DNA of 64,000 nt from GCF_054482595.1 NZ_CM137008.1, one strand, 5' to 3'. Counted from the first letter of the stretch, positions 8,203-25,125 are shown. A program made the numbers and translations. Notes: a model not told the origin generated them from the sequence alone.

Positions 8203-8739
8203 ATGTTACGCGATAAATTTATTCACTATTTTCAGCAATGGCGTGAACGCCAGTTAAGCCGTGGCGAACACTGGCTGGCACAACACCTGGCGGGGCGTTC
8301 TCCGCGTGAAAAGGGCATGTTACTGGCAGCGGTGGTGTTCCTGTTTAGCGTCGGATATTACGTCCTCATCTGGCAGCCGTTGAGCGAACGGATAGAACAA
8401 CAGGAGACGATGTTGCAGCAGCTGGTGGCAATGAACACCCGACTGAAGAACGCCGCGCCGGATATTATTGCAGCGCGAAAATCTGCCACAACAACGCCTG
8501 CGCAGGTATCGCGGGTCATCAGTGACAGTGCTTCCGCGCACTCGGTGGTCATCAGGCGGATAGCCGAGCGTGGGGAGAATATTCAGGTCTGGATAGAACC
8601 TGTGGTGTTTAATGACCTGCTGAAATGGTTAAACGCACTGGATGAAAAATATGCGCTGCGGGTGACACAAATTGATGTCAGTGCTGCTGAGAAGCCTGGG
8701 ATGGTGAATGTGCAGCGGCTGGAGTTTGGACGGGGGTAA
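8203..8739 (+). CDS. gspM: Type II secretion protein GspM
   Basis: 178 aa with N-terminal TM (MLLAAVVFLFSVGYYVLIW); last gene of the operon. Confidence 0.85.
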   Translation: MLRDKFIHYFQQWRERQLSRGEHWLAQHLAGRSPREKGMLLAAVVFLFSVGYYVLIWQPLSERIEQQETMLQQLVAMNTRLKNAAPDIIAARKSATTTPAQVSRVISDSASAHSVVIRRIAERGENIQVWIEPVVFNDLLKWLNALDEKYALRVTQIDVSAAEKPGMVNVQRLEFGRG

Positions 8740-8765
8740 AGTATCAGGAGATTAATATCAATAAA

Positions 8766-8794
8766 ATTACTCTCGTTAACGTGGCGAGAGTAAT
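8766..8794 (+). terminator. Perfect 10-bp inverted repeat (ATTACTCTCG...CGAGAGTAAT) just downstream of gspM; possible terminator
   Basis: Hairpin read directly from sequence; the T-run lies about 20 nt downstream, so terminator function is uncertain. Confidence 0.3.
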
Positions 8795-8840
8795 TCCCCC
8801 AGACTTTATAAGCTAATTTTTTTCGTGAAGGTTATTGTCA

Positions 8841-8875
8841 GATCCAAAAGCAAAAACCCGCCTTGTGGGCGGGTT
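8841..8875 (-). terminator. Rho-independent terminator (minus-strand sense), likely the ancestral tRNA-Phe terminator
   Basis: Stem AACCCGCC/GGCGGGTT with TTGT loop, followed on the minus strand by TTTTTGCTTTTGG. Confidence 0.55.
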
Positions 8876-8887
8876 CTTAAGAATTAG

Positions 8888-8909
8888 TGGTGCCGGACTC
8901 GGAATCGAA
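8888..8909 (-). repeat. 22-nt remnant of a tRNA-Phe 3-prime end (TTCGATTCCGAGTCCGGCACCA); candidate att repeat of a pheV-type island
   Basis: Minus strand carries the T-loop and acceptor 3-prime strand ending in CCA but no tRNA body; identity to tRNA-Phe is from memory (one G fewer than I recall). Confidence 0.6.
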
Positions 8910-9019
8910 GATTTCTTTTATCATATTGATATTAATATAATTTGTTTGGTTTGATTAAAAATGTACCCTCAATTATACCCGCAGTCCCTTTTGATATCGA
9001 AAGGGAATCACACTCGGGA

Positions 9020-9865
9020 TCAGGCTGAGAGCACAGAAGGAAAGTGCCTGGCTATTATATCGTTAATTCTGTCAATCAGCTCCAGCCTTTTGAAAGTGAT
9101 GTGTGCAGATCCCTTCTTAAAGTATTTAATGATGAACATCTCATCTTCATAGCGTCCTTTACCCTGAACGGATTGTATGTGGTCATCCAGATTAATGGTG
9201 ATATTCCCCCGGTTGTCGGGGATCGGTTTACCGCTGAGCAGATGCAACATTCTTTCCAGGTCAGCCAGGCGATCTGCCTGCATTCCACTGATAAGATGAA
9301 ATCCCCACTGGTCCCACCTCACCAGATTGTTGACGATAATTTTACTGCCAAATTTACAGGGTGAGTTGGTTTTGTAATCCCAGCTCAGCCCTTTGAAGAC
9401 GTTGAGCACTCCCCGCTCAAACACTTCATCCTTATTCTGGTGCAGTTGTTCAAATGTGCTCAGAATGTTCGCTTCACTGATTTCCGGAAAATTATCATAT
9501 TCCAGTGACCTGTACCATGTGTCCCGGGTCTGCGCATCCATCAGACTCTGCATCCCGGAACGTTGCATCAGGTCACGCCAGATTTCGCGATCGAGATTGC
9601 GTGTGATGGCTTTCATTGCGGTTTCCGGTTTCTCCATCAGCCAGCAGCCGCAGCGAAAATCCTGTTTCATCGCCCAGTCCAGGGCGGTTTTACCTCCAAT
9701 ACTTTCTGTCAGTACTGAGATTTCTGCCAGTTGCCGGATAAGTGTGTCGATTTGCAGCAGCGCACTCTTTCGTACAGCCAGAATGTGGCGGATACTGGTT
9801 GAGCAGATAACGTCCGTATGCCCGTTGACCAGTTCCGGGCGGGAGATTGTGATATCTGACATCAT
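9020..9865 (-). CDS. Conserved island protein of unknown function (possibly DUF4942-type)
   Basis: 281-aa ORF immediately downstream of the toxin-antitoxin module; the minus-strand terminator at 8841-8875 follows it. Family assignment is from memory only. Confidence 0.55.
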   Translation of the reverse strand: MMSDITISRPELVNGHTDVICSTSIRHILAVRKSALLQIDTLIRQLAEISVLTESIGGKTALDWAMKQDFRCGCWLMEKPETAMKAITRNLDREIWRDLMQRSGMQSLMDAQTRDTWYRSLEYDNFPEISEANILSTFEQLHQNKDEVFERGVLNVFKGLSWDYKTNSPCKFGSKIIVNNLVRWDQWGFHLISGMQADRLADLERMLHLLSGKPIPDNRGNITINLDDHIQSVQGKGRYEDEMFIIKYFKKGSAHITFKRLELIDRINDIIARHFPSVLSA

Positions 9866-9946
9866 CGTTTTTCCTTTTGGTTTATAAACGAAAACGCCAG
9901 CCGTATTCAGGCTGGCGTCAGTGGAATGAAGTCTGGTGAGTGAGAT

Positions 9947-10144
9947 TCACCGGTTCTGGTGCAGAAGCGGCAGTTGGCGCAGGGTATGGATATCCTCCCT
10001 CGCCTGTTCAATACAGGACAACAGTGCTGCCGAATCCGTTTTATCCTCATTGTTGTCAAAGATAATTCCGGATTCGCAGTCGATATTGTCCTGCAGCCAC
10101 GCAATCAGAATATCCAGTGCGGTTTCCGTGGTTAATGATTTCAT
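9947..10144 (-). CDS. Small hypothetical protein (65 aa)
   Basis: ATG at 10144 preceded by AGGAG; sits between the yeeW-like ORF and the 281-aa ORF. Confidence 0.45.
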   Translation of the reverse strand: MKSLTTETALDILIAWLQDNIDCESGIIFDNNEDKTDSAALLSCIEQAREDIHTLRQLPLLHQNR

Positions 10145-10155
10145 GTTGCTCCTGG

Positions 10156-10644
10156 TTACCAGTTGAAAGTGGGTAAACCCGGCAGGCATTCAGCGCTGGC
10201 ATCCAGATGAATGAGACTGACACCATAACGTCGGGTAAGTGTGACAACCAGACGGCGGAACGTTTTTGACAGCCCCAGGCGCTTAAGCCGCAGAACCGGA
10301 TACGGCCACGCATCAGTACGTAACAGATAGCCGCTGCCGGTAAAATGAATCCATTCTGATTCACCGAAGTCACTGGTCTGGTGTGACAGCGAGTACAGCC
10401 AGGCGTTGTCCGTTTCCGTGATATGTGCGGTACTGCAGTGTATACCGGTCAGGACAGCAAATGGTGGCATGCAGTCTGTTGAGGCCCGGTCAGATGCATC
10501 AACAACACGAAGGGAGTGGCCATTATCACAGACCACGTTAATCAGTTCAGCGAGATTAACACCATCGACGTCAACGACAATGCGTCCCATGTTCAGTGCC
10601 TGCACGTTAATGCTGTCGGCTTCCAGCGTCAGGGCCAGTTTCAT
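10156..10644 (-). CDS. YeeW-like hypothetical protein downstream of the CbtA-family toxin
   Basis: 162-aa ORF whose start overlaps the cbtA-like stop by 4 bp (ATGA), suggesting translational coupling. Confidence 0.55.
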   Translation of the reverse strand: MKLALTLEADSINVQALNMGRIVVDVDGVNLAELINVVCDNGHSLRVVDASDRASTDCMPPFAVLTGIHCSTAHITETDNAWLYSLSHQTSDFGESEWIHFTGSGYLLRTDAWPYPVLRLKRLGLSKTFRRLVVTLTRRYGVSLIHLDASAECLPGLPTFNW

Positions 10645-11018
10645 TGTTTCGCCTCCGGATGTTTCCCCTGGGTAATGTTATTTACCGTTCTGTAGTTATC
10701 GCGGGTCATCAGGCCGGTTGCCCTGCGAGCCCGGAGAATATCAATACTGTTTATTAACTGAGAGCGGGTACAGGCGCTGAATCCCGGCTGGTCGGTACGT
10801 ATCAGTGCGTATTTTTCAACGAGAAAGTTCACCGTATCACACAGTGAAATGCCAGCTTCAATATGCTGCTCAATCACACGTTCATCGGCGAACGGTGTGT
10901 CATTCAGTGTGAGGCCATAGTGCTGGTCCAGCAACCGGGACAGCAGTGTCTGCCAGATGGTGACGGGAGGCGGGCAGCGCGATGCCTCCCGTACATGCGT
11001 GTCGGGTAATGTTTTCAT
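10641..11018 (-). CDS. cbtA: CbtA/YeeV/YkfI/YpjF-family toxin
   Basis: 125 aa; sequence (MKTLPDTHVREASRCPPPVTIWQTLLSRLLDQHYGLTLNDTPFADE...) closely resembles CbtA as I recall it. Confidence 0.85.
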   Translation of the reverse strand: MKTLPDTHVREASRCPPPVTIWQTLLSRLLDQHYGLTLNDTPFADERVIEQHIEAGISLCDTVNFLVEKYALIRTDQPGFSACTRSQLINSIDILRARRATGLMTRDNYRTVNNITQGKHPEAKQ

Positions 11019-11107
11019 ACTGAAGATTTTCCTGATATGCAGAGATGAAAAATGGAAAAGTGGCGTGGTGAAAACACCAGGCCGGAGCAGAAGGTTATTC
11101 CGGAGAG

Positions 11108-11476
11108 TTAATTTTTCATTTCGGGTGTCGGATAAACAGCCAGATAAACGTAACCACAGGAGCCGAGGGTGTCGGCTTCACAGGTCAGCCCCTTCGCATA
11201 CAGTGTCACGGTATGCTGATGGCGGGGATTCAGTTCACCGCTGGTGAGCATGAGCTCCAGTTGTTTCATCAGCAGCGGAAAGGCCTGGTCCAGATGGTAC
11301 GCATCCGCGTCGCTGAACCGGCCTCTGATACCGGCGCGGTCGGCAAGGTAATGCAACTGATTGCCCTCCTGCACCAGACGGGCGCCGAAACAGGGCGTCA
11401 CGGTGCAGGGTAGTCCCCACCAGGGACGGTCATGATTGTCATCGGGATGCGTTGTCCCGGAGAGTGTGTCTGACAC
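11108..11476 (-). CDS. cbeA: CbeA/YeeU/YfjZ-family antitoxin
   Basis: GTG start at 11476 with GAGGA upstream gives 122 aa (VSDTLSGTTHPDDNHDRPWWGLPCTVTPCFGARLVQEG...), matching YeeU-type length and sequence. Confidence 0.85.
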   Translation of the reverse strand: MSDTLSGTTHPDDNHDRPWWGLPCTVTPCFGARLVQEGNQLHYLADRAGIRGRFSDADAYHLDQAFPLLMKQLELMLTSGELNPRHQHTVTLYAKGLTCEADTLGSCGYVYLAVYPTPEMKN

Positions 11477-11525
11477 GATAAAATCCTCACAGAAAATCGG
11501 TGAATGATAGTTTAACGATGACGGG

Positions 11526-12170
11526 TCAGCCGGCGCGCAGACCGGCTTCGGTGAAGGTGTATTCGTTGATGAGTAGGGCCTCATCCACAGCGGCGTCTGA
11601 GGTCAGCCAGTCGTACTCGTTTTCCAGTTGACGGTACAACCAGAAGGCCAGGCCGCGCAGGGCTTCGCTGACAGCGGCTTCCGCATCGGTTGTCATAGTC
11701 TGACCAGTCGGACTGTTCTGGGTGACGGTGATATCCATGCTGTACGGATGGCAGTAGCGTCCCCTGTGGTGGATTTCAGCCTGCAGTTGCCAGAAGTTAC
11801 GCTTTTGCACCGCCTGCAGGGCATCCGCGATACGATGAAGTTCATGCTCCTGTGGGGCATACTTCCGGATTCTTCTGACTGTCGCTGGCTGCCAGTGCCA
11901 GCGTCCTTCAAAACAGGCTCCGTCCCCCTGGCTGCAGAATCCGCTGAACCAGATGCTCGGCTCCTCCATAAACCTGCCGTTGCTGAGCCGGAAAACGCGC
12001 TGGCGGAGGTCAATTCCGAAAATGCCACAGACCTCCCTGAAGTCTTCATACACGTTTTCATACCAGTTGCTGTCAGCATGATGCTGACGGTACCCGTCGC
12101 GGGCTTTTTCCTGTGCGGTGGAGGATAGCTCATTCAGTGTATACACGGTGGTGGTGATAATTCTGTTCAT
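11526..12170 (-). CDS. Hypothetical protein (214 aa) between yeeT-like and cbeA-like genes
   Basis: Long ORF with protein-like composition (WFSGFCSQGDGACFEGRWHW); not recognised; atypical position for this module. Confidence 0.5.
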   Translation of the reverse strand: MNRIITTTVYTLNELSSTAQEKARDGYRQHHADSNWYENVYEDFREVCGIFGIDLRQRVFRLSNGRFMEEPSIWFSGFCSQGDGACFEGRWHWQPATVRRIRKYAPQEHELHRIADALQAVQKRNFWQLQAEIHHRGRYCHPYSMDITVTQNSPTGQTMTTDAEAAVSEALRGLAFWLYRQLENEYDWLTSDAAVDEALLINEYTFTEAGLRAG

Positions 12171-12188
12171 CAGAATTCCCTTCCTGGC

Positions 12189-12410
12189 TCAGTTCAGGGT
12201 GACGCTCATCAGCCGGACATACGGGCCAAAACTGTCCTTACGGCGTTCTGCAAACACGGCCAGTACACCGGGAATATCCTGCACTTCACGACCGGTATAC
12301 GCTTCAGTGCTGCCGTGCCAGCGGTATTTGCCGGTGCAGAACGGAAAAAGACGGGATGCAGGATGCTGTTGGTGAATACGCATGGCTTCACCACGGGTGA
12401 TGATTTTCAT
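12189..12410 (-). CDS. yeeT: YeeT-like DUF987 protein
   Basis: 73 aa (MKIITRGEAMRIHQQHPASRLFPFCTGKYRWHG...), near-identical to YeeT as recalled. Confidence 0.8.
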   Translation of the reverse strand: MKIITRGEAMRIHQQHPASRLFPFCTGKYRWHGSTEAYTGREVQDIPGVLAVFAERRKDSFGPYVRLMSVTLN

Positions 12411-12478
12411 AGTGGGATACCTCTGAAGACAGAAGATAAAAGTGAAAACAGGTGTGATGTGGTTGTGACGGTGACGGG

Positions 12479-12955
12479 TTAAAGCAGACCATGTTCGGCA
12501 AAGGAGAAAACCTGGCTGCCACCGACTATCAGATGGTCCGGCACCCGGATATCCACCAGGCCCAGTGCCTGTACCAGACGTTCCGTGATAAGGCGGTCTG
12601 CCTTGCTGGGTGTGACTTCACCGGACGGGTGATTGTGTGTCAGCACCACAGCAGCGGCATTGTGATACAGGGCGCGTTTAATCACTTCACGGGGATGGAC
12701 TTCCGTGCGGTTGATGGTGCCGGTGAAGAGGGTTTCACCGGCAATCAGCTGATTCTGGTTGTTCAGATACAGCACCCGGAACTCTTCACGCTCCAGTCCC
12801 GCCATGTTCAGAATCAGCCATTCTCGTGCCGCACGGGTGGAGGTGAAGGCCACGCCGGGTTCATGAAGATGGCGGTCCAGGGTTTTCAGGGCCCGTTGAA
12901 TGAGGCTGCGCTCGCCGGGCGTCATCTCTCCGGGCAGAAAGGAAAGCTGTTGCAT
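12479..12955 (-). CDS. yeeS: RadC-like JAB-domain protein (YeeS/YfjY/YkfG family)
   Basis: JAMM-type motif HNHPSGEVTPSKAD; preferred ATG at 12955 has GGAG upstream (ORF track begins at 12970). Confidence 0.85.
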   Translation of the reverse strand: MQQLSFLPGEMTPGERSLIQRALKTLDRHLHEPGVAFTSTRAAREWLILNMAGLEREEFRVLYLNNQNQLIAGETLFTGTINRTEVHPREVIKRALYHNAAAVVLTHNHPSGEVTPSKADRLITERLVQALGLVDIRVPDHLIVGGSQVFSFAEHGLL

Positions 12956-12970
12956 TGTACTTCTCTCCAT

Positions 12971-13456
12971 TCAGTCGATGATGCGCATAATGGCGCTGCA
13001 TTCCGGATGCTGCAGGGCGTAATCCCGTAGACGGTAATAATGAACCGTCATGGCATAATTCTCTGTACGACAGGCGTGATGGCTGTACGTCATCAGACAG
13101 GCGGCAATACCAGCAGCTTCCGGGCCCATTTCAGCGCGGTTACCATTCATGGCATTGAACAGCACCCAGGTTTCTCCATCATCTTCATCCGGTTCGGGCG
13201 CCATAAATGCGCCGCCGTTATTCAGGGTGTACAGATTCCAGATACCACCGCAGTAGTCTTCACACAGACGGTCCATCCAGCCGAAGACACGGGGCTCCAG
13301 GGTCACCCACTGTGGAATGAGGCCAAAGTGCTGCGGCCAGAAGCTGATACGTTGTTCATCAGGGACGGGAGTAGCAACCAGTTGGGGCTGGTTATTCCCT
13401 GGTGCAGTAGTTACGGAAACAGAAGGTGTGGTGGAGCTATGCGAAAAGGTTGTCAT
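12971..13456 (-). CDS. Antirestriction protein (YfjX/YafX, KlcA/ArdB-like)
   Basis: 161-aa ORF immediately upstream of the radC-like gene in the conserved CP4-type order; family from memory. Confidence 0.7.
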   Translation of the reverse strand: MTTFSHSSTTPSVSVTTAPGNNQPQLVATPVPDEQRISFWPQHFGLIPQWVTLEPRVFGWMDRLCEDYCGGIWNLYTLNNGGAFMAPEPDEDDGETWVLFNAMNGNRAEMGPEAAGIAACLMTYSHHACRTENYAMTVHYYRLRDYALQHPECSAIMRIID

Positions 13457-13547
13457 GAGATTATTCCTTATAAAAAGTAAATGAATGGAAGAATGCCTGA
13501 GGACTGGTACAGACGTGAGTCAGGGCTGCACTTTCAGGGAAACAGCA

Positions 13548-14366
13548 TCAGCGCATGCTCTCCAGCAGCGTTTCTGCCATCACCCACAATGCGCGATTGA
13601 GCTTAATGTCCGTGTCGATGCTGTGAATGGCCCGGGTGTGGATACGTTTTCCTTTAGCGCTGCGACCGGAAATCCCGCCTTTCAGCATATTCTCCTGGAT
13701 GGTCTGATAAGCACTCCACAGGTCCTTACCGTAATCCTCCCGGCGTCGTGGCGTCAGAATGTCGGCGGTGGTGACGGGCTGATGTTCGTCACCATAACGG
13801 TAAGTCAGTGCCGCCTGTGCCAGCGCCTGACGTGCCGGTGGCGGCAGAATCAGCGACTGCATGGCATCACGCTTTTCCTCAATCCGGTCAAACACGCCCA
13901 CCACCTCGTAAGCCCCTTCGATAACTTTCTCCACTACATTTCCCCGGTGTGGAACACGCACTTCCCCCAGAGACTGACCACAGACGCAGCCGTTCTGGCA
14001 GACGAATCTGAAGTAACCCGGTAGCATCTGGTAGCTGGAGGTACCGTCATGGGAGTTGAGCAGAATAATTTCAGGGACATGTTGTCCGGTTATCTCCCCG
14101 TCACGCCGCAGACGCAGCATGTGTTTGGTGTATTCCCGGCGGCTCTGGTCGCGCACGCGGGTCTGGCAGGCAAAGAACGGCTGAAAGCCTTCCTGCTGCA
14201 GATTTTCCAGGACGGTGATAGTGGGAATGTACGCATAGTGTTCACTTCGGGAGGTATGTCGGTTTTCCCCAAAAATACTCGGTACATGGCGCATCAGTTC
14301 TTCGTGTGTCAGCGGACGGTCACGGCGTATCTGATTTACATGACCAAAACGACTGGCTAATTGCAT
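13548..14366 (-). CDS. DUF932-family protein (YafZ/YfjQ-like)
   Basis: 272-aa ORF at the position and size of YafZ/YfjQ in CP4-type modules. Confidence 0.7.
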   Translation of the reverse strand: MQLASRFGHVNQIRRDRPLTHEELMRHVPSIFGENRHTSRSEHYAYIPTITVLENLQQEGFQPFFACQTRVRDQSRREYTKHMLRLRRDGEITGQHVPEIILLNSHDGTSSYQMLPGYFRFVCQNGCVCGQSLGEVRVPHRGNVVEKVIEGAYEVVGVFDRIEEKRDAMQSLILPPPARQALAQAALTYRYGDEHQPVTTADILTPRRREDYGKDLWSAYQTIQENMLKGGISGRSAKGKRIHTRAIHSIDTDIKLNRALWVMAETLLESMR

Positions 14367-14455
14367 ACTTTGCTCCTTATGAATGAGTTAGCGGTATAAA
14401 TGAAAAGGCCGCGTCTCCCGGAGAAGACGCGGCCTGATGGATGAAATGAAGACGT

Positions 14456-14725
14456 TTATTGCCTGAGAATTCCCTCGCTGGCGAGATACGGGTTTAGCTG
14501 TTTTCCGGCATCAGGTTCAAAATTCCAGCAGCGCCAGCGTAGCTGGCCTTCAGCGTTGCGGATCACCAGCCGGAAATGCGTTCCCTGGTCATCTTCAATA
14601 AGCACATTAAGGTAAGCCGTTGTGACGGCAAGAGCCTGGTTGCGTGAGAAAGGGCCTTCGGGCAATAAACGTGATGTACAACCTGGCATATCTGTTGCTC
14701 CCTGTAAGTAAAAGGCCCCGGTCAT
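14456..14725 (-). CDS. Small hypothetical protein (89 aa) between antigen 43 and the DUF932 gene
   Basis: ORF with protein-like composition; not recognised. Confidence 0.4.
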
Positions 14726-14759
14726 GATGACCGGGGCCTGAAGGGGAGTGACCTGATTA

Positions 14760-17606
14760 TCAGAAAGTCACATTCAGTGTGGCCTGACCGTTATAACCTT
14801 CAGCGCTGCTGCCGCTGACACTGTGGGCATAACCGGCCTGAACGCCCAGGGTGATATTTTCCCGGACACGGGCTTCCAGTCCGGCCTGCAGGTCCAGTGT
14901 CGTGCCATTCCGGGACGGTGAGAACGTCATGTTACTGCCGGCTGCGGCTGTACCCATGCTCATGTCCCCCCGGGAGCTGAAGGTGCGGATAACAGAAGGC
15001 TGTACCCACCAGTTCACCTGCAGTTCACGCACACTGTGTTTGGCACTGTCGCGCAGGGTGTCACGGGATGAGGTGCCTTTACCAAAGTTCATATCGTTGT
15101 GGCTGCCCAGACGGAAGCCGGCACGCACATGTTGTGCACTGCCATGCCCGAACTTCACATAACCGGCGTTATCCTGGCCGTCATCCAGGGAGAGTCCCTG
15201 CCAGGTGTACTGCAGTTGCGGCTCCAGCATCAGATTGTCAGTGATACTGAAGGGCAGACCGGTTTCCAGTGAGCCCAGCCAGCCCCAGCCCCGGGCGCGG
15301 AAGTCGTTATTGTCCGATGACGCTTTCATGCTGTGGCGGGTTCCCTGTGCCACAATGTCAGCCCACAGGCCGGAGGACGTGTGTGTCAGATTCAGGTATC
15401 CGCCCAGGCTGCCGGCATCATCCCGGACCGTGCCGGCGCGGGAACCGTCATCATCCTTAACATCAACGGAAGAATGGCCTGCAGCACCATATACCCCTGT
15501 CGTCAGAGACATACCGGCAACCTCTGTTCTCAGCAGGTCACCCTCCAGACGGACGAAGCCATAGCTGCCGCTGCTTTCCGGCGTGGCTCCACGGGCAATA
15601 CCGCCGTTGTTATCGTGACCGAGATGACCGCCCTGAATGCTGAGACGGACGCTGTTATTTTCACCGTTTACACCGGTCTGATGGCTGCGGGAGCCTGCCA
15701 GAATCCGGTCATAGTCCATTGCCTGTGTCAACATGGATGTATACAGGGGGACTTCAGCACGATAAGCATTTTCACTGCGCAGGTACCAGTCTTCATCGCT
15801 GTCACGGTTCAGGGTGTAGTTAAAGGCGCCGGCCTGAAGCGGGCGACTCAGAGCAAATGCACCTTCTTCTGTGGTGGCACCATTCTGTGCATCCACAACC
15901 CGGATACCCTGTCCGGAGGTTGCCACCCCGAGGTTACTGTTTCCGACATTTGTAAACGCAAGCCAGGTTTTGCCGGTTGCCTGACCACCATTAATCACCA
16001 GCTGGTCAGAGGCATTGCTGCCATCAAGGCGAACACGCATATTGATGGTGCCACCCTGACCGGTGAGGTTACTGGTGGTCAGTTTATGGAACGTTACCGG
16101 GGCGTCGCCTTTTGCAACAGCACGGCTCAGGACGGCATCCTGTGTCGTCTGATTATCAAAGCGAATCTCCCCTGCGTTAACAATATCGCCGGTACTGACC
16201 ACATCACCATTCAGTACCATGCTGGCGCCTTTACTGAGCTGTGTTCTGCCACTCAGACTTCCCCCGGCAGCCAGCGTCAGTGTTCCACGATGTCCGACAG
16301 TGGTGTTGCCAGCCTGTCCCCCGGCATTAACCGTAAAGCTGCCGCCATTTTCCAGCAGCAGGCCGCTGGCCTGACCGGATATGCCATCAATACTGAACTT
16401 ACCGCTGGCATTGGTCCCCTCAACAGTGGCACCACTGTCTGCAATCAGGGCACCACCGGATGTCATGGTGACACCTGTCGCCTTACCACCGGCAGACACT
16501 GCCAGGGTACCGCCGTCATCCACCCGTGTTTTCTGCGCTGAATGACCCTCCAGTACATCCAGACGACCGCCGGACTCCAGAACAACACCGTCAGCCTTAC
16601 CGTTTTCCACCGCGAAATTGCCCAGACGGTTGCTGCCGGTGACGGTTGCCGCCGTACTGGTGACCAGTGCGCCTCCCTGCTTCAGGGTGACATTCGTGGC
16701 TGTACCACCGGCGTTCACCTGCAGTTTGCCTTTCTGGTTAACGGTGGTGAAATCCGCCAGACCACCTTCCTTGATAATCTGCCAGCCGTCACTGTTCACA
16801 ACAGTGTCAGACGTTGTACCTCCGTTGTGCACATACTGGTACCCCCCATTCAGCGTGGTATCCAGTGCGTGACCATGTACCGTCTGGTCGCCGCCGGCAT
16901 AAACCACCGTGGTGTTTGCCACTCCGGTGGCTACCACAATCTGACGACCATTTTTATTGATGGTGGTACGTACGGCATCTCCGCGAACAAACTGTCCGGT
17001 ATCAGCATTTTCCGCATCCGGTCCTCCTTCTGCGCCGGTATTCACAACCGTGTCGGTTGCCATTGCGCCGGATTTGACGGCCTGCCAGCCCTTCTCATTA
17101 ATGACGGTACCCGTTGCAATCCCGCCTTCATGTACCCACTGCTCACCGCCGTTCAGAGTGGTGTTCACTGCCTGCCCCTGAAGGCTCTGTCCTCCTCCGG
17201 CACTGATAACCGTGTCTGAAACGCTTCCTCCGGCATTCACTCTCTGAAGACCACCACCGGTGACAGTAGTGTTGTTGGCGATACCGCCATTTTGTATCCA
17301 TTGTCCGCCGGTATTGGCCTCGTTATCCGGCCCATACTCCAGCCCGGTACTGATGGTCATTCCGTTGGCCGTACCGAGGACAATCTGGTTGTCATGATTT
17401 GTCAGTGTTCCGTCGTTCACGGTTTCTCCCGCCTGTACAACCGTGTCAGCAGCCAGTGCCGGGACTGATGTGACAGCAGCAAGAGACAGTGCAACCGCCA
17501 CACCGGCGCGTTTTCCCCGTGAGCGGGCCAGTTCGGAGGCCACCACCAGGGTGCCCGTAATGTGATTCCATACCAGCCTGTAGCTGGTGTTCAGATGTCG
17601 TTTCAT
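14760..17606 (-). CDS. flu: Antigen 43 (Ag43) self-associating autotransporter adhesin
   Basis: Start at ATG 17606 ([28 protein letters not shown]...); repetitive passenger domain and C-terminal beta-barrel ending ...GQATLNVTF. Confidence 0.92.
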
Positions 17607-17823
17607 CAGCTTTTCCTTACAGAGGGTGAATAAAAAAGCCGGTACCCACAAATGTGGATACCGGCAGGTACAAAACAGCATGGTCAGATAAAGTGGTTTT
17701 TCCCGGGCATAAATGCTTCCCTTCTCTCATCCGCCAGAGAAGTATCAGTCCGTTGTGTGCAATTCCGTTCTGCATGATGAAGAGATTCAGCTGCCTTTTC
17801 GCAGACCATTAACCACTATAAAC

Positions 17824-17859
17824 GATCGATAGTAACGATCGATACCTGTTTTATCGATC
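17824..17859. promoter_or_regulatory. Three clustered GATC sites upstream of the Ag43 gene (candidate Dam/OxyR phase-variation switch)
   Basis: GATC at 17824-17827, 17837-17840 and 17856-17859, about 220-250 bp upstream of the Ag43 start. Confidence 0.7.
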
Positions 17860-17977
17860 GTTTTATTCTATTAACGACAAGGCGGTCACGCAAGAGAAAC
17901 AGGAGGAGTATGAGGGGTTTGTGTCATGTTTTCAGTTGGTTAACGTAATGTTATCAGGCATTTCCCTGGCAGACTGT

Positions 17978-18850
17978 TCAGAAGAAAATCCAGTTCCATA
18001 CAGCGCGGGCAACAGAGACCACCGTGTCACGGACGGCACGCAGAACCGTGCGTGCAACAGAGGCAATACAGACGCTCTCCGCTGTGTCAAATATCCGGTC
18101 CACCGCACCGGTAAACTGTTCACGGGCCTGAGACCGGACAGATTCCGTGCGCAGCTCGTCCTGCAGGCGGGTCATCAGGGGACTGGCGGCATGGTCGGGA
18201 AGCGCTGTCATGAGCGCACTGACCAGCGTATCCAGTTCCCAGCCGGTGCGGGCCGATACGGCCACAACCGGATGTACGGGCCGGAACAGACGGAATACCG
18301 CCTCCGTTTTTTCGCGAATATTCTGTGCCTGTGCGGGAGAAGGCTGAATGCCGGCCATATCCCATTCATGGCAGGGCTCCGTTTTGTCGGCCTGCGTCAC
18401 CACAAACAGCACCTGCTGATGTCCCCGGTGCAGGATGTGTCGCCAGAAATACTCATCCACAGACAGGGCACGGTCATCGGCTTTAATCAGCCACAGTACC
18501 AGGTCAAGTTCAGGCAGAATGTCACGGTACAGGGCTTCATACTCTGCATCCCTGTCCCGGCTCTCGCCCACCCCGGGCAGGTCAGTGATAATCATACTGT
18601 GACCGTGGCCACTCAGACGGAAGCGCCGCACTTCCCGGGTGCCGGCGTGAACATCACTGACCGGGGTGACCTCCCCCTGAAACAGTGCATTACAGAGTGA
18701 GGATTTACCGGCCCCGCTTTTCCCCATAATGCCAATCACGGGTTCGTGACTGGTGAGTTTGCGCAGATGTTCCAGGATGTGACGGGAAAGTGAGTAAGGC
18801 AGGGAGGAGAGCGGTTTTTCAATTGCCTCAATGGCATCAGACGGATTCAT
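17978..18850 (-). CDS. yeeP: YeeP/YkfA/YfjP-family GTPase
   Basis: P-loop GKSGAGKSSL and DLPG motif; preferred ATG at 18850 (ORF track begins at 18913). Confidence 0.8.
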   Translation of the reverse strand: MNPSDAIEAIEKPLSSLPYSLSRHILEHLRKLTSHEPVIGIMGKSGAGKSSLCNALFQGEVTPVSDVHAGTREVRRFRLSGHGHSMIITDLPGVGESRDRDAEYEALYRDILPELDLVLWLIKADDRALSVDEYFWRHILHRGHQQVLFVVTQADKTEPCHEWDMAGIQPSPAQAQNIREKTEAVFRLFRPVHPVVAVSARTGWELDTLVSALMTALPDHAASPLMTRLQDELRTESVRSQAREQFTGAVDRIFDTAESVCIASVARTVLRAVRDTVVSVARAVWNWIFF

Positions 18851-19204
18851 ACATGTATTCCCGGTGAAAAAAGACAAAACCCCCGCACACCGGAAAGGTG
18901 GCGGGGGACTCACGGAGATAATATATGTCTGAAATTATTTGGAATGCAGGTATATGTGGCTGATACAGGTCTGAATCTAATCTGACAGTCCGCTCTGTGC
19001 CAGTAGCGGACGTTACTAACATAATTCAAGAAGATTAAAGTATTCCGGAAACGATTTTGTTAGAATGTTTTAATTATGTAACCAAGATACATTTTCTTAT
19101 GAGAGTATATGCGAGTTTTTATCTTATAATCAGAAGATTACAATCTGAACTTGTGATAGTAAAGTTACATAATTAATTATGTTAACATTGAAAAAATCAT
19201 AGGA

Positions 19205-19945
19205 ATGCTAGTGATAAAGCCTGAAATTACATCTCTATTCAAATACTGCCCTATCGGTAAGAATCAATTAAGTGCTCTTGCACAGCGGAAAATCTGGTAC
19301 TCAAAACCGGCAGGATTTAACGATCCTTTTGACACCCAATTTTATGTGAGAGGACAAAGGCATGTGTACGAACGGGAAATGGACTCTGAAAAATTATCAG
19401 CCATTTTTGGTGAAGATATGTCAGATGTAATGGTTTCCAAAAAACGTTCTCTTGATGAACTTTTGGACAGATTTAAAAGCGGTTTAGAAAAGTTAGGTAT
19501 TCTTTCACTAGCAAGCAGTAACAAAAATTTGCTGATGTGGTCGCATTATGCTTCTGAACATAAAGGTATGTGCTTAGAGTTTAAACGCATCGCCGGCACA
19601 GCCTTAGCAGATGATAAAATAACTAGGCCGATGAATTACAATGATAATTATCCATCGATACAGGCAAGTTCAATTTTAAATGAAGTCGATACATTATCTA
19701 ATAAAATTAGAATATTACATACAAAATCTAAACATTGGGAATACGAGCAGGAGTGGAGGCATGTAGTTGAGCAAGGTAATGAGTTACATCCTTGGCCCGC
19801 AGAATTAATTTCTGTTTATTTCGGCTGCAAGACAGATATGTCAGATATACATTTGGTAAGAAGTATAATTACGGACCCAAATGTTAATTACTATAAAGGA
19901 AATTTGTACAGTGATAAATTTGACATTTATTTTCAACCGATATAA
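19205..19945 (+). CDS. DUF2971-like protein (MWSHYA motif); function unknown
   Basis: 246-aa ORF in a visibly AT-rich segment; contains LLMWSHYASEHKG; family assignment from memory. Confidence 0.55.
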   Translation: MLVIKPEITSLFKYCPIGKNQLSALAQRKIWYSKPAGFNDPFDTQFYVRGQRHVYEREMDSEKLSAIFGEDMSDVMVSKKRSLDELLDRFKSGLEKLGILSLASSNKNLLMWSHYASEHKGMCLEFKRIAGTALADDKITRPMNYNDNYPSIQASSILNEVDTLSNKIRILHTKSKHWEYEQEWRHVVEQGNELHPWPAELISVYFGCKTDMSDIHLVRSIITDPNVNYYKGNLYSDKFDIYFQPI

Positions 19946-20090
19946 TTACGTAAAAACATATATACATTAACTAATGTTAAGTATTGTAAATACATCACGA
20001 TCGATTGAATGTCTGCTGTTCGCTCGCAGCGGACCTTCAGTTCATGTAACTTTTCCGCTTCGTACCAAAAGCGGACGTCAAAATGTATGT

Positions 20091-20438
20091 TCAGCTAGCG
20101 TAAGTTGAGCGTTTCATAATGATGTCTCTCTGCGGGTCTGACCCAACCTGACAAATATGCTCTCCAACCTCGGTAAACCCAAGCTTACGATAAAAAGAGA
20201 TTGCCCTTGGGTTATATTCCCAGACACCTAACCAGACAGGATCCGATCCCTTTGCCTCAAATTCAGCAAAGCACTTTTGCATCAGTGCTTGCGCAAATCC
20301 TTTACCATGGTAGGGCTCATCGACATACAGGCACAGAATTTCTCTGGCATAGATGCTATTGACACAGGGAGGAAACTCTTCCCACCTTAGTTGAGCGTCA
20401 ATTTGTGGCGAAAACCCATGAGTTAGAAATTCAATCAA
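20091..20438 (-). pseudogene. GNAT-family N-acetyltransferase fragment (N-terminally truncated)
   Basis: 115 aa with GNAT-like C-terminal core (YHGKGFAQALMQ...FYRKLGFTEVG) but too short for a full GNAT domain. Confidence 0.5.
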
Positions 20439-20528
20439 TTACAGGAAGGAAAAGTAAAGGAGGGGGTGGCTCTCTTTAGGAGAGCCATGAGTGGAAATGG
20501 ATATTAGAAGAAAGGAGTTGTTTCCACA

Positions 20529-21665
20529 TTAAAAATTAAGTTCATACCTATCAATTACACCATTTTTTATTCTGTAAATAACATTAGATGAAATTGACTC
20601 AAAGTAAACATACCCAACTGCTTGGATTATATTTATTAGCATGCAAGAAAATGAAACAATGAATAGTGGCAGCGAGGATGTGTTGTAGTTTACCAGGTAA
20701 ATAAATTCGCCATAATACAATGGCCCACACATTGCGAGTGCTAATGATATAAATAAAAAACCTTTTATTGCTTTAATTAAAAATATAGAGGCGTTTATTT
20801 GTTTTCTTATCTTTTCATCGCCTAAGAGATAAAGGTTGAAATCTTGAGATTTTGTTGTGTCCACTGAGAAGATATTAAGAATATGTGGGTATATCAATGA
20901 TATATCCTTTGTTTTCATAAGATTCATCATCTCTATTCTCCGCGTGACGAACAGTGAACCCAACCAAAAAACCATGAATACAGGCATAGCATAACTAGCT
21001 ATTTTGGCTATACTTATCAATGATACACTAGATGCCATGTCACCTATTTTAAATGGGATAATTAAGGTTGATTCTATGTTGACTATCTCTATCTTTGAAT
21101 TACTCTCATCTTTTATTTTTCCATCCAACCAGTTCATTGCATCATGATAGTTTGCGATTTTATCTTTTTCAGGAAGGGCCGATTCTATTTTATCCCTTAC
21201 AATATAGCCCACACTTGATTTTTCAATCTCTTTTTTCAACACATCGTACATAAAGTATTTTAACTCATTAATTGAACTCACCTCATCAAGGTCTATTTCA
21301 CGCAATCCCTCATTTATCATTTTTTTTCTAATGGAAAAGAATTCATTTTCTATTTCTGATTTATATCTTACTGTGTCCATCTCTGATTTATTTATTCTTT
21401 TTCGAAAGTCTAGAATATCAGATACGCTTTCATTAACAGCTGAAATTTGTGTTTCGATAAATTCTATTTTTCTTCTTTTTGTTTCAATTTGTTGTTTTAT
21501 ATCTTTGTATGAGGTTATTAAAGCAAATAGGTTTTGGCTGCTTAATGTAATTAATAAAGAGCAGGTGAGGAAACTAAAAATAACAACAACAATACTCATG
21601 TATAATAATCTATCAAATCTCTTTCCCAGTTCGTACAACCTATCCACTATTCTTCTCACTTTCAA
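20529..21665 (-). CDS. Membrane protein with N-terminal TM, central coiled-coil-like region and C-terminal TM cluster; function unknown
   Basis: 378-aa ORF in very AT-rich DNA; start uncertain (TTG 21665, GTG 21644 with GAGAAG upstream, or ATG 21599). Confidence 0.55.
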   Translation of the reverse strand: MKVRRIVDRLYELGKRFDRLLYMSIVVVIFSFLTCSLLITLSSQNLFALITSYKDIKQQIETKRRKIEFIETQISAVNESVSDILDFRKRINKSEMDTVRYKSEIENEFFSIRKKMINEGLREIDLDEVSSINELKYFMYDVLKKEIEKSSVGYIVRDKIESALPEKDKIANYHDAMNWLDGKIKDESNSKIEIVNIESTLIIPFKIGDMASSVSLISIAKIASYAMPVFMVFWLGSLFVTRRIEMMNLMKTKDISLIYPHILNIFSVDTTKSQDFNLYLLGDEKIRKQINASIFLIKAIKGFLFISLALAMCGPLYYGEFIYLVNYNTSSLPLFIVSFSCMLINIIQAVGYVYFESISSNVIYRIKNGVIDRYELNF

Positions 21666-22508
21666 AGGCGATATAGATAGGTTATATCATGCCTTCATCT
21701 TTTGAACTAAACAATCTATATCAGATAACAGTTCTCTTCGCAGTTGTGTCCCTACTCTTTGGTGGCCCGTAGGCTCCTGAGCTGGACATCGTGCGGGACT
21801 ACCTCACAGTCAATTGTAAGCAGTAAAGAGGAACGAGAACCATTCATAGAGCCTAACACACTAAATGCCGCATTGAATCCCACGACTCGGCACGATCAAC
21901 GTAAGATAATCGGAGCTTGCTGCATGGTGACAAATGGAAAATGTGAAGGTAAAGAAAACGACATTACTAACTGACGTTTGTATCTAACACTGGGGACAGG
22001 TCACCTTGAATCGATGGAAGTCTCATTATTCAGAAGCCGTGCTTCTCAGGGTTCTCCTGCAGTGGATAGTTTGTACGATTTGCTCCTCCGGACACTACGG
22101 GCCAGAAAAGTTGAAAATTGAGACTATGTACCAGGTGCCTCAACGTCCGCTCATCGCTCACAACGGACCTTCAGCTCAGCCGCTCCGGCCGCTTCATGCA
22201 ATGAATGTACGCAGCCAGTCAGAATATTAAGGTGCGGATTTCAGTTCACTTGTCAGCCCTGTGATGCAACAAGTTGCGGCTCCGGTTCGTGGGAGAGATG
22301 AAACGACGGTAGCTGAAGTTACTGAAATGAAGAATTCAGAGAGACTGAATGATATGCCTCACCTTTAGTGAATAGTGTAAAAACGGGAGACTCTCACCCG
22401 GGATTATCCACTCATGCTCAATGTATAATTTTCGTGTCCCTCACAGGTAAGGGCCGGATACATTTGTTGAGTACGCTGCAGAATTGGTAATCGGGGACCC
22501 TGCCGTCT

Positions 22509-22721
22509 TTAACTCCGGGTCTTATGCTGCTCATTTGCCACAAAATCCAGGTGCGCCTGCTCAATCATTTCATTCAGCATTTTTTTTGGGGGGACACCAC
22601 GACTTCGGGCAATACTTTCAAGCTGTTTGTGGATTTTTCCGGACAGTTTCAGCGGGACGGAACCATCAGCACGTTCATCACGCCTTTTTTGTTGCTCCCT
22701 GGCACTTTTCAGTTCATCCAC
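22509..22721 (-). CDS. Small putative ribbon-helix-helix-like protein (70 aa)
   Basis: Charged small protein with VPLKLSGKIHKQLESIARSRG pattern; overlapped by plus-strand ORFs, so coding status is uncertain. Confidence 0.3.
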   Translation of the reverse strand: MDELKSAREQQKRRDERADGSVPLKLSGKIHKQLESIARSRGVPPKKMLNEMIEQAHLDFVANEQHKTRS

Positions 22722-24429
22722 AATATAGCTGCTCTTCTCGCATTTTTGCCGATTTTAAAAATGCGAACAAAACATCCGTACATGATGTACAGATTAAACT
22801 GCCAGGGACTGGTGTCAGAAAACCTCCGGTTAGCCTGCTCTTTCCGGAATGTGCCGGTTATGAAAAACCGGAAATTCAGTCTCTGTTGTAAGATGTACCC
22901 TCTGATACTACGTTTTCGTTTTCTCTGTGTATTTAACTCACTGTATTTATTTTCTTTTTAAGCCTGACTGATATTCTCCGGTCATAGTGTGCCTGATAGA
23001 CATCCCGTAACCTTCTCATTTTTATATAAAAATACCTGCACTGTCTTCAGCGCATCTGTCTCCTTTAAGTAAAAAATGTTTTCACGTATTGCTGTAAATT
23101 CATTTTAAATCAGTATGTTATCCTGATATTGCTGTCTCCTGGTTTGATGCGTAATCGTTCTGCCTTTCTGGATGATTCTGGTGCTTCCGGGTGCATTCTC
23201 CTCTGCACATGCAACAGTTCGTCATCGCCACGTGCCCAAAAGCATATAAAAACGAATCGAATCTGATCGTTTTTTCAATCGTTTTTCACAGGAATTTCGT
23301 AGGGTGTTCTCCGCTATAGCCTCCATATTTGCTGTCTTTTTCTTCATAAATCGTATGCAATATAACCAGTCTGTCAAGACATCTTCCCTGCTGTTGAGGT
23401 GACGATCTCATTTCTGGTCTTTTCCGGGAGAGAGACGGTCAGATGAGCGAGCCGGATTTACTGCCAGAGGTACTCCCCGCGGCAGAAAATAGTGCTCCTG
23501 TTTCCGCAATCCGGGATCGGCAACGTCCCATGGTTAATGCCACTTGCAGCGTCAGGCACTGCAGGTTTACGTCGTGATCTGATTTCTTCTGCACTTATCC
23601 CGATCACGGAAGTTCCCCCTGCGCAGACATCGGTTCCTGCCGACATCTCACAATACCGCCAGGCAGTCATGCAGTAACACCCGCAATGCGGTCTGCGGTT
23701 TTAAGCGCACTCTCCTGTATTCAGTGCACCGATAATGCATCATAGAAAGTCCGGGGGGAGTTACTGAATGTCTGTTAAGTGGTGCCGTGGGTGGAGACTG
23801 CTTACTTTTCCACAGTAACTGCAGTCATTCAGGATGCTCAGGAGAGAATATGTCAACGCCACGGGCCGGGCCATTTTCATGCCAGCCAGGATATTTTCAA
23901 TATTGATGCTGTCTGCTTTTCACCATTTCATCCTCACTGACTGATGTTGTATTTTTGTGCAGCACTACAGATTTGCGTTTCTCTTTTAACTGGTCACGCT
24001 CTCCTTTGATATTCAGCGTGGTTGAGTGATGCAGCAGTTGATTCAGGATTGCTGTTGCCCTGCAACCACCATATCAACTTCTTCCCGGCATGCCGGCGCT
24101 GGTATCCAGGCCGGGTTTCGAAGTGAAGCGTTCCTGACGGACTCATTGATATCCGGGCCGGATGTAGTCATGCAGCATGGAACGTCTACCCGTATACACT
24201 GACGGCGTCCGGCCGTGTACATCTCTTCCGCGGTTCAGGGAGCGCTGTCGCCATGTACTTATTGTCACCAGGAGAGGCATGTACCGCAGCATGCCAGCTC
24301 AGCAGTGACAGGATGCCCTTAAGACATCCGTCATGGCTCAGTATGACGACGCCCCCGCTCTGCAGGTGAGCATGCGGGGCCGGGAGCAGCATTCCCGTAT
24401 TTTGCCGCACCTTCCGGAAGCAACCGGCA

Positions 24430-25047
24430 TCAGTTACGGTTATCGTCAACCGTTGTGCGGTATGCCAGGAGCACGTACTGATCCATCAGATCCGCCAGTG
24501 CTGCGTTCTGCTTCTGACGGTCGATGATCCATTCCCCCAGCTCTTTTTCTGATTTACGTTTCAGGTTCTCCGTCCAGTCGTCAAGGCTGTTTCCGGTCAT
24601 TAAATCAAGCCAGCAAAGCCAGACCAGTTTGAGGCGCAACTCAGTGCCACCAAACTGACGGAAGAGGCTGATCAGTTTATTTGCCAGAGAACGCCGCCTC
24701 AGACGTTCACATTCAGACAGCAGAATGCCTTCCAGCATCGGATGATGAACCAGCAGATGTTCGCTGGTGCATAAGTTCACCACCAGATCATCATCCAGGG
24801 GCGGCGTGGCCCGTTTGTCAGAGCCATAAATCAGCCGGTGCAGACTCCGGGGGACGATGGCAATCTCCGGTTTTTCACCATTGAATGACACCCACCCGGG
24901 CGTCAGATTATGGAAGTAGTGGATATTCGGATGACATACGCCCCAGGATACGGCGTGCCGGGTGAAGCCGGTCAGCCATTTCTGGTAGCTTTCGTGGAGC
25001 AGCTCGTAACGGGTCTGATACTGTGGTTTCATTTTCATATTCCTCAC
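24430..25047 (-). CDS. Hypothetical protein (205 aa) downstream of alpA
   Basis: ORF co-oriented with the AlpA-like gene; not recognised. Confidence 0.5.
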   Translation of the reverse strand: MRNMKMKPQYQTRYELLHESYQKWLTGFTRHAVSWGVCHPNIHYFHNLTPGWVSFNGEKPEIAIVPRSLHRLIYGSDKRATPPLDDDLVVNLCTSEHLLVHHPMLEGILLSECERLRRRSLANKLISLFRQFGGTELRLKLVWLCWLDLMTGNSLDDWTENLKRKSEKELGEWIIDRQKQNAALADLMDQYVLLAYRTTVDDNRN

Positions 25048-25125
25048 GGGGGATAACAGGCAGCAGAACGCCGCCGGCAGGCCGGAGATTGCGTCTGCTG
25101 TGGGTGAAGGGGCAGTGGTTAAAAA

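Follow-up and report, generated by a model that had tools for sequence, protein, structure and literature searches.

An intact CP4-type accessory block in which a DUF5983 (YeeW) gene and a constrained 214-aa gene are regular members decayed in K-12 CP4-44

CbtA/CbeA of Escherichia coli K-12 has been described as a two-gene system (PMC5371832, PMC5624674), and a survey of E. coli toxin-antitoxin loci found DUF5983 always downstream of the toxin, ST11 being the only sequence type examined that lacked the CbtA_toxin/DUF5983 pairing (PMC10790755). Clusters of anti-defence genes have been described in the leading regions of conjugative plasmids (PMC11541004). In the present study, the closest systems for comparison with our window, the whole stretch of 64,000 nucleotides that was analysed, include three K-12 modules. 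CP4-57 (yfjQ...lfgA-lfgB-ypjJ-yfjZ-ypjF) has the backbone DUF932, antirestriction, RadC, DUF987, antitoxin and toxin as in the window, and CP4-6 (yafZ...yafX-ykfG-ykfH-yafW-ykfI) shares it from DUF932 to toxin. CP4-44 carries yeeS-yeeT-cbeA-cbtA-yeeW, the same genes in the same order, with about 90-95% nucleotide identity over yeeT, cbeA and cbtA and the same ATGA overlap between cbtA and yeeW; upstream of yeeS, however, it has yeeR where the window has the DUF932 and antirestriction genes.

A preliminary description of this DNA had proposed a CP4-type module to which a 214-aa ORF between yeeT and cbeA, and a 162-aa ORF joined to the cbtA stop by an ATGA overlap, were extra in comparison with K-12. 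The ORF calls and Pfam assignments bear out the CP4-type identity, the order DUF932, antirestriction, RadC, YeeT, antitoxin, toxin on the minus strand, and the placement of both ORFs. The genes of 9020-14725, all on the minus strand, run from DUF905 to DUF4942 as follows.

14456..14725, minus strand: DUF905 family gene (YkfF-like), from the ORF and the RefSeq annotation of an identical sequence; a shorter PGAP start gives 14456-14689
13548..14366, minus strand: DUF932 gene (YfjQ/YafZ-like), PF06067, 169.9 bits
12971..13456, minus strand: antirestriction protein, PF03230, 122.9 bits
12479..12970, minus strand: RadC-like JAB domain protein (YeeS/YfjY-like), PF04002, 149.8 bits; the PGAP start gives 12479-12955
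12189..12410, minus strand: DUF987 protein (YeeT), PF06174, 133.7 bits
11526..12170, minus strand: 214-aa gene, RefSeq WP_001774605.1, from the ORF, RefSeq annotation, homologues and a structural model
11108..11476, minus strand: cbeA (YeeU-family type IV antitoxin), GTG start, PF06154, 184.2 bits, with RefSeq annotation and alignment to K-12 cbeA
10641..11018, minus strand: cbtA (YeeV-family toxin), PF06755, 204.1 bits
10156..10644, minus strand: 162-aa DUF5983 protein, full-length YeeW, PF25638, 107.6 bits, and PF19419, 76.9 bits
9947..10144, minus strand: DUF957 gene, 11 nt downstream of DUF5983, from the ORF and RefSeq annotation
9893..9919, minus strand: terminator-like hairpin after DUF957, from the consensus scan only
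9020..9865, minus strand: DUF4942 gene, final gene of the block, PF13708, 225.9 bits

The DUF932, antirestriction, RadC, DUF987, antitoxin and toxin genes lie on one strand within an island, as in a CP4-44-type block, and positions 8878-26400 of the window are 99.8% identical to the Santai island, the module region being 100% identical to annotated RefSeq genomes. The family PF03230 includes KlcA/ArdB. As in a type IV toxin-antitoxin pair, the PF06154 antitoxin is followed by the adjacent PF06755 toxin across a spacer of 89 nt, and the RefSeq names agree; the cbeA ORF spans 11108-11584 and its true start is the GTG at 11476, the same as in K-12. A strong terminator-like hairpin was found at 14435-14406, just upstream of the DUF932 gene, which is probably the first gene of a transcription unit. 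Terminator-like hairpins flank the stretch from DUF932 to DUF957 on both sides, those inside it being weak in the consensus scan, and the hairpin behind DUF957 is probably the end of the unit. The genes from DUF932 to DUF957 are probably co-transcribed as one unit, because their spacing is tight and no strong terminator-like site lies between them.

The 162-aa ORF was found to be the full-length form of DUF5983/YeeW and a real gene. It matches both PF25638 (DUF5983_N) and PF19419 (DUF5983) far above their cut-offs of 27, and it is homologous to the K-12 yeeW ORF directly downstream of cbtA (phmmer E 4e-19; DNA alignment). Its ATG overlaps the TGA of cbtA, with GGAGG nine bases upstream, an arrangement by which DUF5983 may be translationally coupled to the toxin gene; the overlap is common to the window, K-12 and Salmonella. 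The suggestion that this ORF falls outside the CP4-44 layout has to be given up, as K-12 keeps its first 64 codons and the overlap. The top matches listed for DUF5983 come from E. coli, Shigella and Klebsiella, and the family appears largely confined to enterobacteria; a sequence search of the PDB returned no match.

In K-12 CP4-44, yeeW is a 64-aa remnant of the DUF5983 N-terminus followed by a remnant of DUF957; the C-terminal domain of DUF5983 has gone, and so has most of DUF957. Of the 214-aa gene, the spacer between yeeT and cbeA retains the beginning (ribosome-binding site, ATG and first eight codons), after which about 630 bp are deleted. In O157:H7, the last 113 bp of the gene remain, directly after the yeeT stop. 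Deletion of the 214-aa gene has thus left one scar in K-12 CP4-44 and a different one in O157:H7, and the window has the intact layout; the direction of change is the reverse of what calling the ORFs extra implied. The ordinary-member claim depended on an alignment of the K-12 and O157 spacers with the ends of the 214-aa gene, and they do align there; mis-assembly of the matching RefSeq genes was also checked, and the claim stands. In strain R7, an intact 214-aa gene is combined with a K-12-like truncated yeeW end. K-12 CP4-57 and CP4-6 have neither the 214-aa gene nor DUF5983, their DUF987-antitoxin spacers being 37 and 18 nt. None of the three K-12 modules has an intact copy of the 214-aa gene, in agreement with what had been proposed for CP4-44. 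Both ORFs are standard members, annotated in thousands of RefSeq genomes, which is largely the outcome that the preliminary description had named as its refutation, and the domain names attached to them are labels of unknown function. Both ORFs are thus regular block members, and CP4-44 of K-12 derives from the block by deletion. Because its copies have decayed, K-12 serves poorly as a reference, and its CP4-44 should not be taken as the canonical layout in annotation. What the window shows is the common intact layout of a well-known E. coli island block, and the finding of it matters little in itself.

The 214-aa ORF, too, is a real gene, under constraint, and no chance ORF. It starts 18 nt past the yeeT stop behind a Shine-Dalgarno-like sequence, AGGAAGGG, ends 49 nt ahead of the cbeA GTG, and has 100% DNA identity to genomes annotating WP_001774605.1. 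Against the copies of CFT073, Klebsiella, Salmonella and Alphaproteobacteria its dN/dS is 0.08-0.21, with 0 indels over 214 codons, and this length is kept from E. coli through Alphaproteobacteria. DNA of any part of the gene is present in 2682 of 5426 complete E. coli genomes (3912 places), and 1942 of the 5426 have it at a coverage of at least 80%. The family is large (6117 representatives at E<=1e-3; over 6000 clusters at 50% identity), and its nearly invariant residues include E14, Q81, D83, H141, R172 and N202. Its RefSeq product names are "hypothetical protein", "antitoxin of toxin-antitoxin stability system" and "DUF8835", the latter two being borne by copies 94-98% identical to the protein of the window; membership of DUF8835 is known only from recent PGAP product strings, and the 2025 Pfam copy has no matching family.

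The proposal that this protein has no recognisable motif was upheld by searches of Pfam (2025 copy), NCBIfam and PADLOC, the PADLOC models covering defence and not anti-defence proteins, none of which gave a match. In Pfam nothing matched at E<=0.01 or even E<=10, antitoxin families included, and 112 diverse family members matched no Pfam family consistently. PHROGs matches were to families of unknown function only (phrog_5162, E 1.4e-35), sequence-profile searches of the PDB gave nothing credible, and a literature search on family names, accessions and the PHROG number returned nothing on the family. No similarity was found to the profiles of known antitoxin families (CbeA/YeeU PF06154; Phd/YefM), nor to a described anti-defence family. 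The name "antitoxin of toxin-antitoxin stability system", the COG2161 phrase for Phd/YefM-type antitoxins, is unsupported by any similarity that we detected; those antitoxins share the product name only, and the predicted architecture of the 214-aa protein differs. The structure prediction that had been proposed was run, and the AlphaFold2 model (pLDDT 96.4) is predicted to be an acidic alpha/beta fold without a solved structural relative. The family has a median pI of 4.75 and a net charge of -16, the E. coli copy being mildly acidic (net -7). Longer homologues that include portions of RadC, antirestriction or DUF5983 genes were rejected as clues to function, being chimeras of adjoining module genes, formed by deletion and each known from a single sequence.

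The 214-aa family was also found in 70 phage records and on 112 plasmids, most of which are alphaproteobacterial and 41 of which are typed conjugative, whereas CbtA is on 66 plasmid records, of Enterobacterales only, and in 1 phage record. Plasmid neighbours include genes for an ArdC-like zincin, DUF2958, ParB-N, a strawberry-notch-like NTPase and toprim; the Tistrella homologue has genes for NikA, a relaxase and T4CP nearby. On alphaproteobacterial plasmids a conserved protein of 136-138 aa is encoded upstream of the homologue, with no Pfam match and no counterpart found in the E. coli block. Ten non-enterobacterial loci were scanned and none had another module gene adjoining, except for one divergent DUF932, about 6 kb from the homologue in a metagenomic contig pair (L019/L020). 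Phage homologues sit within arrays of small uncharacterised genes, and neighbours on viral contigs include orphan methylase, NinX-like and DUF2201 metallopeptidase/VWA genes. Across 80 viral loci there was no constant partner, the best shared neighbour occurring in 11 of the 80, without a Pfam match and unrelated by hhalign, and the phage genes were not significantly enriched near contig ends (26% within 10% of an end vs 20% expected, p=0.25).

The region is an intact copy of the conserved accessory block with which many tRNA-associated genomic islands of enterobacteria end. We judge it quite likely that the parts of the block have the following roles. Within it CbtA/CbeA would work as the known type IV pair, independently of both flagged genes, since the K-12 and O157:H7 modules are without the 214-aa gene and DUF5983 is a stub in K-12. 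The 214-aa protein would be an autonomous accessory protein of mobile elements, its gene moving among conjugative-plasmid clusters (ArdC-like, ParB-N, DUF2958), phage small-gene regions and the island block, and its most likely role is to aid the establishment of an element in a new host, for instance against a host defence, and not to act as an antitoxin; the anti-defence idea is suggested by its neighbourhood and charge only. For DUF5983 a toxin-linked role is possible, and it may be regarded as a candidate modulator of CbtA. Counter to this account run the constant place of the 214-aa gene beside the toxin-antitoxin pair in Enterobacterales and the stop-loss fusion to CbeA. The anti-defence idea has against it the variable viral neighbours, the lack of significant enrichment near contig ends, the mild acidity of the E. 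coli copy and the missing PADLOC match, PADLOC having models for defence proteins only.

A more specific reading, which we hold only tentatively, is that the family is an anti-defence or host-takeover effector, perhaps captured twice into the CbeA/CbtA operon and perhaps modulating that pair. In E. coli the gene precedes cbeA, while Klebsiella and Salmonella have it between cbeA and cbtA, and the E. coli, Salmonella/Klebsiella and alphaproteobacterial types are about equidistant (pN 0.26-0.29); this equal distance allows either two captures beside the same pair or an old rearrangement.

It is rather unlikely that DUF5983 is a second antitoxin or a CbtA modulator within a functional unit CbeA-CbtA-DUF5983, even though its start overlaps the cbtA stop in the window, K-12 and Salmonella and the near-universal pairing of the survey speaks for it. 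DUF5983 is a stub in K-12 CP4-44 and is absent from CP4-57, CP4-6 and the Klebsiella modules examined, all of which keep a cbtA-family gene and cbeA, and its DNA was found in 8828 places (4145 of 5426 complete E. coli genomes) vs 13573 places for the cbeA-cbtA pair (4919 of 5426).

Still less probable is that the 214-aa protein is a third CbtA/CbeA component in Enterobacterales, an accessory antitoxin, adaptor or regulator, as the RefSeq name implies. In its favour, the gene there always has its place within the DUF987-CbeA-CbtA stretch, at the two positions given, with a 4-nt overlap of the cbeA stop in Klebsiella and Salmonella, and the equidistance of the three types is compatible with two captures beside the same pair or with an old rearrangement. 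Natural strains also hold a 343-aa in-frame fusion of the protein to CbeA, produced by a TGA-to-TTA stop-loss in a short-spacer variant, and PF06154 occurs among the homologues only in these fusions, in their CbeA part. The fusion was rejected as strong evidence of a functional link, since the ribosome-binding site and GTG of cbeA are retained inside it, and PGAP calls the allele a pseudogene. Moreover, CbtA/CbeA persists without the 214-aa gene in thousands of modules (13573 places vs 3912), the K-12 system has been characterised as one of two genes, the family reaches far beyond CbtA into alphaproteobacterial plasmids and phages, and the protein resembles neither CbeA nor any Pfam family. 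That one or both ORFs are non-functional, as chance ORFs or decaying pseudogenes, is hardly credible despite their recurrent deletion or truncation across E. coli lineages, because it is contradicted by the conservation data, namely the dN/dS values, constant length and confident model of the 214-aa gene, the thousands of homologues and the two curated Pfam domains of DUF5983.

Returning to the preferred reading of an intact block with an autonomous 214-aa accessory protein, the family is abundant, strongly conserved, structurally unmatched and present on several kinds of mobile element, and it would therefore be reasonable to include it in screens for anti-defence or establishment functions. 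Its homologues on plasmids lie in same-strand clusters, as in the ArdC/ParB-N/DUF2958 clusters of alphaproteobacterial plasmids and ICE-like elements and the leading-region anti-defence clusters of conjugative plasmids (PMC11541004). The block of the window holds antirestriction and RadC genes like clusters of this type, whereas no conjugation genes are found in the examined stretch of the island. ArdA and Ocr, which are DNA-mimic antirestriction proteins, and KlcA/ArdB are small, acidic and borne by mobile elements. The 214-aa family resembles them in being small and acidic and in its presence on mobile elements.

The gene block at 9020-14725 represents a common island module in intact form, and several RefSeq genomes are 100% identical to the entire 5.7-kb region. 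The gene layout read on the minus strand in the preliminary description is borne out by the open reading frames (ORFs) and Pfam assignments. Our overall account of the block, as an intact module and as regards the roles of its genes, is probably correct.

Genes of the block in the window, with the basis of each assignment
14456-14725, minus strand, DUF905 (ORF)
13548-14366, minus strand, DUF932 (ORF and Pfam)
12971-13456, minus strand, antirestriction protein, PF03230 (ORF and Pfam)
12479-12970, minus strand, RadC-like JAB protein (ORF and Pfam)
12189-12410, minus strand, DUF987/YeeT (ORF and Pfam)
11526-12170, minus strand, 214-aa ORF (ORF)
11108-11476, minus strand, CbeA (GTG start, same as K-12)
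10641-11018, minus strand, CbtA (ORF and Pfam)
10156-10644, minus strand, 162-aa ORF (ORF and Pfam, DUF5983 domains)
9947-10144, minus strand, DUF957 (ORF)
9020-9865, minus strand, DUF4942 (ORF and Pfam)

The 214-aa and 162-aa ORFs had been regarded as extra to the canonical layout. Databases already list both, with annotation in thousands of genomes; the layout with both is therefore known and that reading largely falls. The interest that is left lies above all in the 214-aa family and also in DUF5983, which are still families without an assigned function. The 162-aa ORF matched PF25638 with 107.6 bits and PF19419 with 76.9 bits (cut-offs 27). Its ATG shares bases with the cbtA TGA (ATGA), and GGAGG is present nine bases upstream. 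The yeeW of K-12 CP4-44, annotated as 64 aa, likewise has a 4-nt overlap with the cbtA stop; by alignment and phmmer it corresponds to the N-terminal domain of the 162-aa gene, with a remnant of DUF957 after it. Homologous DNA was found at 8828 places in 4145 of the 5426 complete E. coli genomes, and about a thousand clusters at 90% identity are in the protein database, nearly all of 162-163 aa and carrying the DUF5983 label. In a published survey, every sequence type examined but ST11 had the CbtA_toxin/DUF5983 pairing, and DUF5983 invariably lay downstream of the toxin (PMC10790755). On the basis of the domains, the K-12 alignment, the genome counts and this survey, the 162-aa ORF is a canonical module member and the truncated version is that of K-12. 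Translation of DUF5983 would be coupled to that of cbtA, with DUF5983 a possible modulator of the toxin. In some strains a deletion has joined the DUF5983 N-terminal domain and DUF957 in one ORF (comparison loci L024-L026, 6478-6915; L028, 2119-2556); in K-12, the DUF957 remnant comes after yeeW (L002, 9926-10258). These arrangements bear on a 2026 preprint in which the AntiFam entry ANF00264, adjoining DUF5983 and cbtA, is argued to be a real protein (10.64898/2026.06.09.728211).

Between the yeeT stop and the start of the 214-aa ORF there are 18 nt, with the sequence AGGAAGGG ahead of the start. It is a regular module member: its DNA is present in 2682 of 5426 complete genomes (coverage of at least 80% in 1942), and the order DUF987, 214-aa gene, CbeA, CbtA is common to E. 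coli CFT073, R7 and others. The 100%-identical genomes carry it as WP_001774605.1, 'hypothetical protein', and PGAP has also named the gene 'antitoxin of toxin-antitoxin stability system' and recently 'DUF8835 domain-containing'. A recent RefSeq product string has a propagated typo, 'DUF8835 domain-containing pootine' (database matches H5, H8, H9, H22 and others). It is also a real, constrained gene, with dN/dS of 0.08-0.21 against the copies in CFT073, Klebsiella, Salmonella, Tistrella and Haematobacter, each of exactly 214 codons. Among 1.84 billion cluster representatives, a profile search gave 6117 relatives at E<=1e-3, of which 1028 reached E<=1e-30; their length is nearly always about 200-225 aa. 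Near-invariant residues in 112 diverse members include E14, Q81-G82-D83-G84-A85, H141, R172, W177, Y179, N202 and F206. The family is acidic, at a median pI of 4.75 and a median net charge of -16; the copy in the window is less so (pI 5.6, net charge -7), and this very large family is without a solved structural relative.

In Enterobacterales the 214-aa gene always lies within the DUF987-CbeA-CbtA stretch but its position differs: in E. coli it is ahead of cbeA, and Klebsiella michiganensis and Salmonella have it between cbeA and cbtA. Salmonella has two tandem CbeA-family genes; the stop of the second overlaps the 214-aa start by 4 nt, and cbtA follows (L015, 6293-7645; L016, 2555-3907). The E. 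coli, Salmonella/Klebsiella and alphaproteobacterial types of the gene are at about equal mutual distances. In some strains the protein is fused in frame to CbeA through a 7-residue linker (LPEDFIV), giving 342-343 aa (L025, 5001-6032, P0019; L028, 642-1673). This fusion originated by a TGA-to-TTA stop-loss in a short-spacer variant (15 nt), whose junction is present in 473 of 5426 complete genomes; the allele retains the ribosome-binding site and GTG of cbeA and is flagged by PGAP as a pseudogene. The gene's constant embedding in this stretch and the fusion allele make a toxin-antitoxin-linked role possible; they do not establish such a role, and a dedicated toxin-antitoxin accessory is an unlikely identity for the protein.

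Beyond Enterobacterales, family members occur without CbtA or CbeA. The Tistrella mobilis homologue is flanked on one side by ParB-N and DUF736 genes and on the opposite side by NikA, relaxase and T4CP genes, and on Haematobacter and Sphingomonas plasmids the homologue belongs to a same-strand cluster that also contains ArdC-like zincin, DUF2958, ParB-N, strawberry-notch-like NTPase and toprim genes. The start of the homologue on alphaproteobacterial plasmids is overlapped by 8 nt by the gene for a conserved protein of 136-138 aa (MADYYTHFSC...; L007, 7592-8008; L008, 4823-5233), which matches nothing in Pfam, lacks a counterpart in the E. coli block and is a possible lineage-specific partner. 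By tblastn the family was found on 112 plasmids, mostly of Alphaproteobacteria (41 typed conjugative), and in 70 phage records, including Caulobacter giant phages, Acinetobacter, Pseudomonas and jumbo E. coli phages; a viral-contig scan confirmed at least 457 relatives. CbtA was found in 66 plasmid records, from Enterobacterales only, and one phage record. The 214-aa family spreads among plasmids, an ICE-like element and phages independently of CbtA. The phage homologues sit in arrays of small uncharacterised genes with varying neighbours, among them orphan DNA methylase, NinX-like and DUF2201 metallopeptidase/VWA genes, and enrichment near contig ends was not significant in phages and viral contigs.

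CbtA/CbeA would function as the described type IV pair, and the 214-aa protein may serve the mobile element at host entry, in establishment or anti-defence, a role to which its neighbours and acidity, these two, point. A specific anti-defence or host-takeover role is put forward tentatively. The antirestriction-like and RadC-like genes of K-12 CP4-57 are now named lfgA and lfgB (L003, 6920-7869), and LfgB, an annotated protease, has been reported to cleave the antitoxin MqsA (PMC10846083). As an lfgB homologue, the RadC-like gene at 12479-12970 could plausibly encode a protease.

Four strong terminator-like hairpins (stems 10-13 bp, minus strand, 14739-14713, 14435-14406, 9919-9893 and 8879-8851) bracket DUF905, the DUF932-to-DUF957 stretch and DUF4942, which suggests at least three transcription units. 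Between the second and third of these hairpins there are weak ones only, and with strong hairpins at both ends DUF932 through DUF957 would form a single unit.

The island of E. coli O157:H16 Santai (L001) is 99.8% identical to window 8878-26400. It abuts cadC in Santai and gspM/yghD in the window (8203-9020), suggesting the same island at two different chromosomal sites, which we take to be the pheU and pheV neighbourhoods; no tRNA genes were detected in the entire window. Low-GC stretches (0.33-0.43, about 0.55 elsewhere) occur at 19000-22000, 28000-29000 and 58000-62000, further inside the island or beyond it.

In K-12 CP4-44 the yeeT-cbeA spacer retains the ribosome-binding site, ATG and first eight codons of the 214-aa gene, followed by a gap of ~630 bp ending close to the cbeA start. 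O157:H7 and other strains have a different scar, in which the yeeT stop is immediately followed by the final 113 bp of the gene, stop codon included. That the 214-aa gene was deleted twice, independently, indicates its presence in the ancestor of these modules and shows it to be dispensable for keeping CbeA/CbtA. K-12 CP4-57 and CP4-6 both lack the 214-aa gene and DUF5983; retention of cbeA/cbtA needs neither. Hence, in comparison to K-12 CP4-44, the window has the intact module, whereas K-12 is the decayed form, with the 214-aa gene deleted and yeeW truncated.
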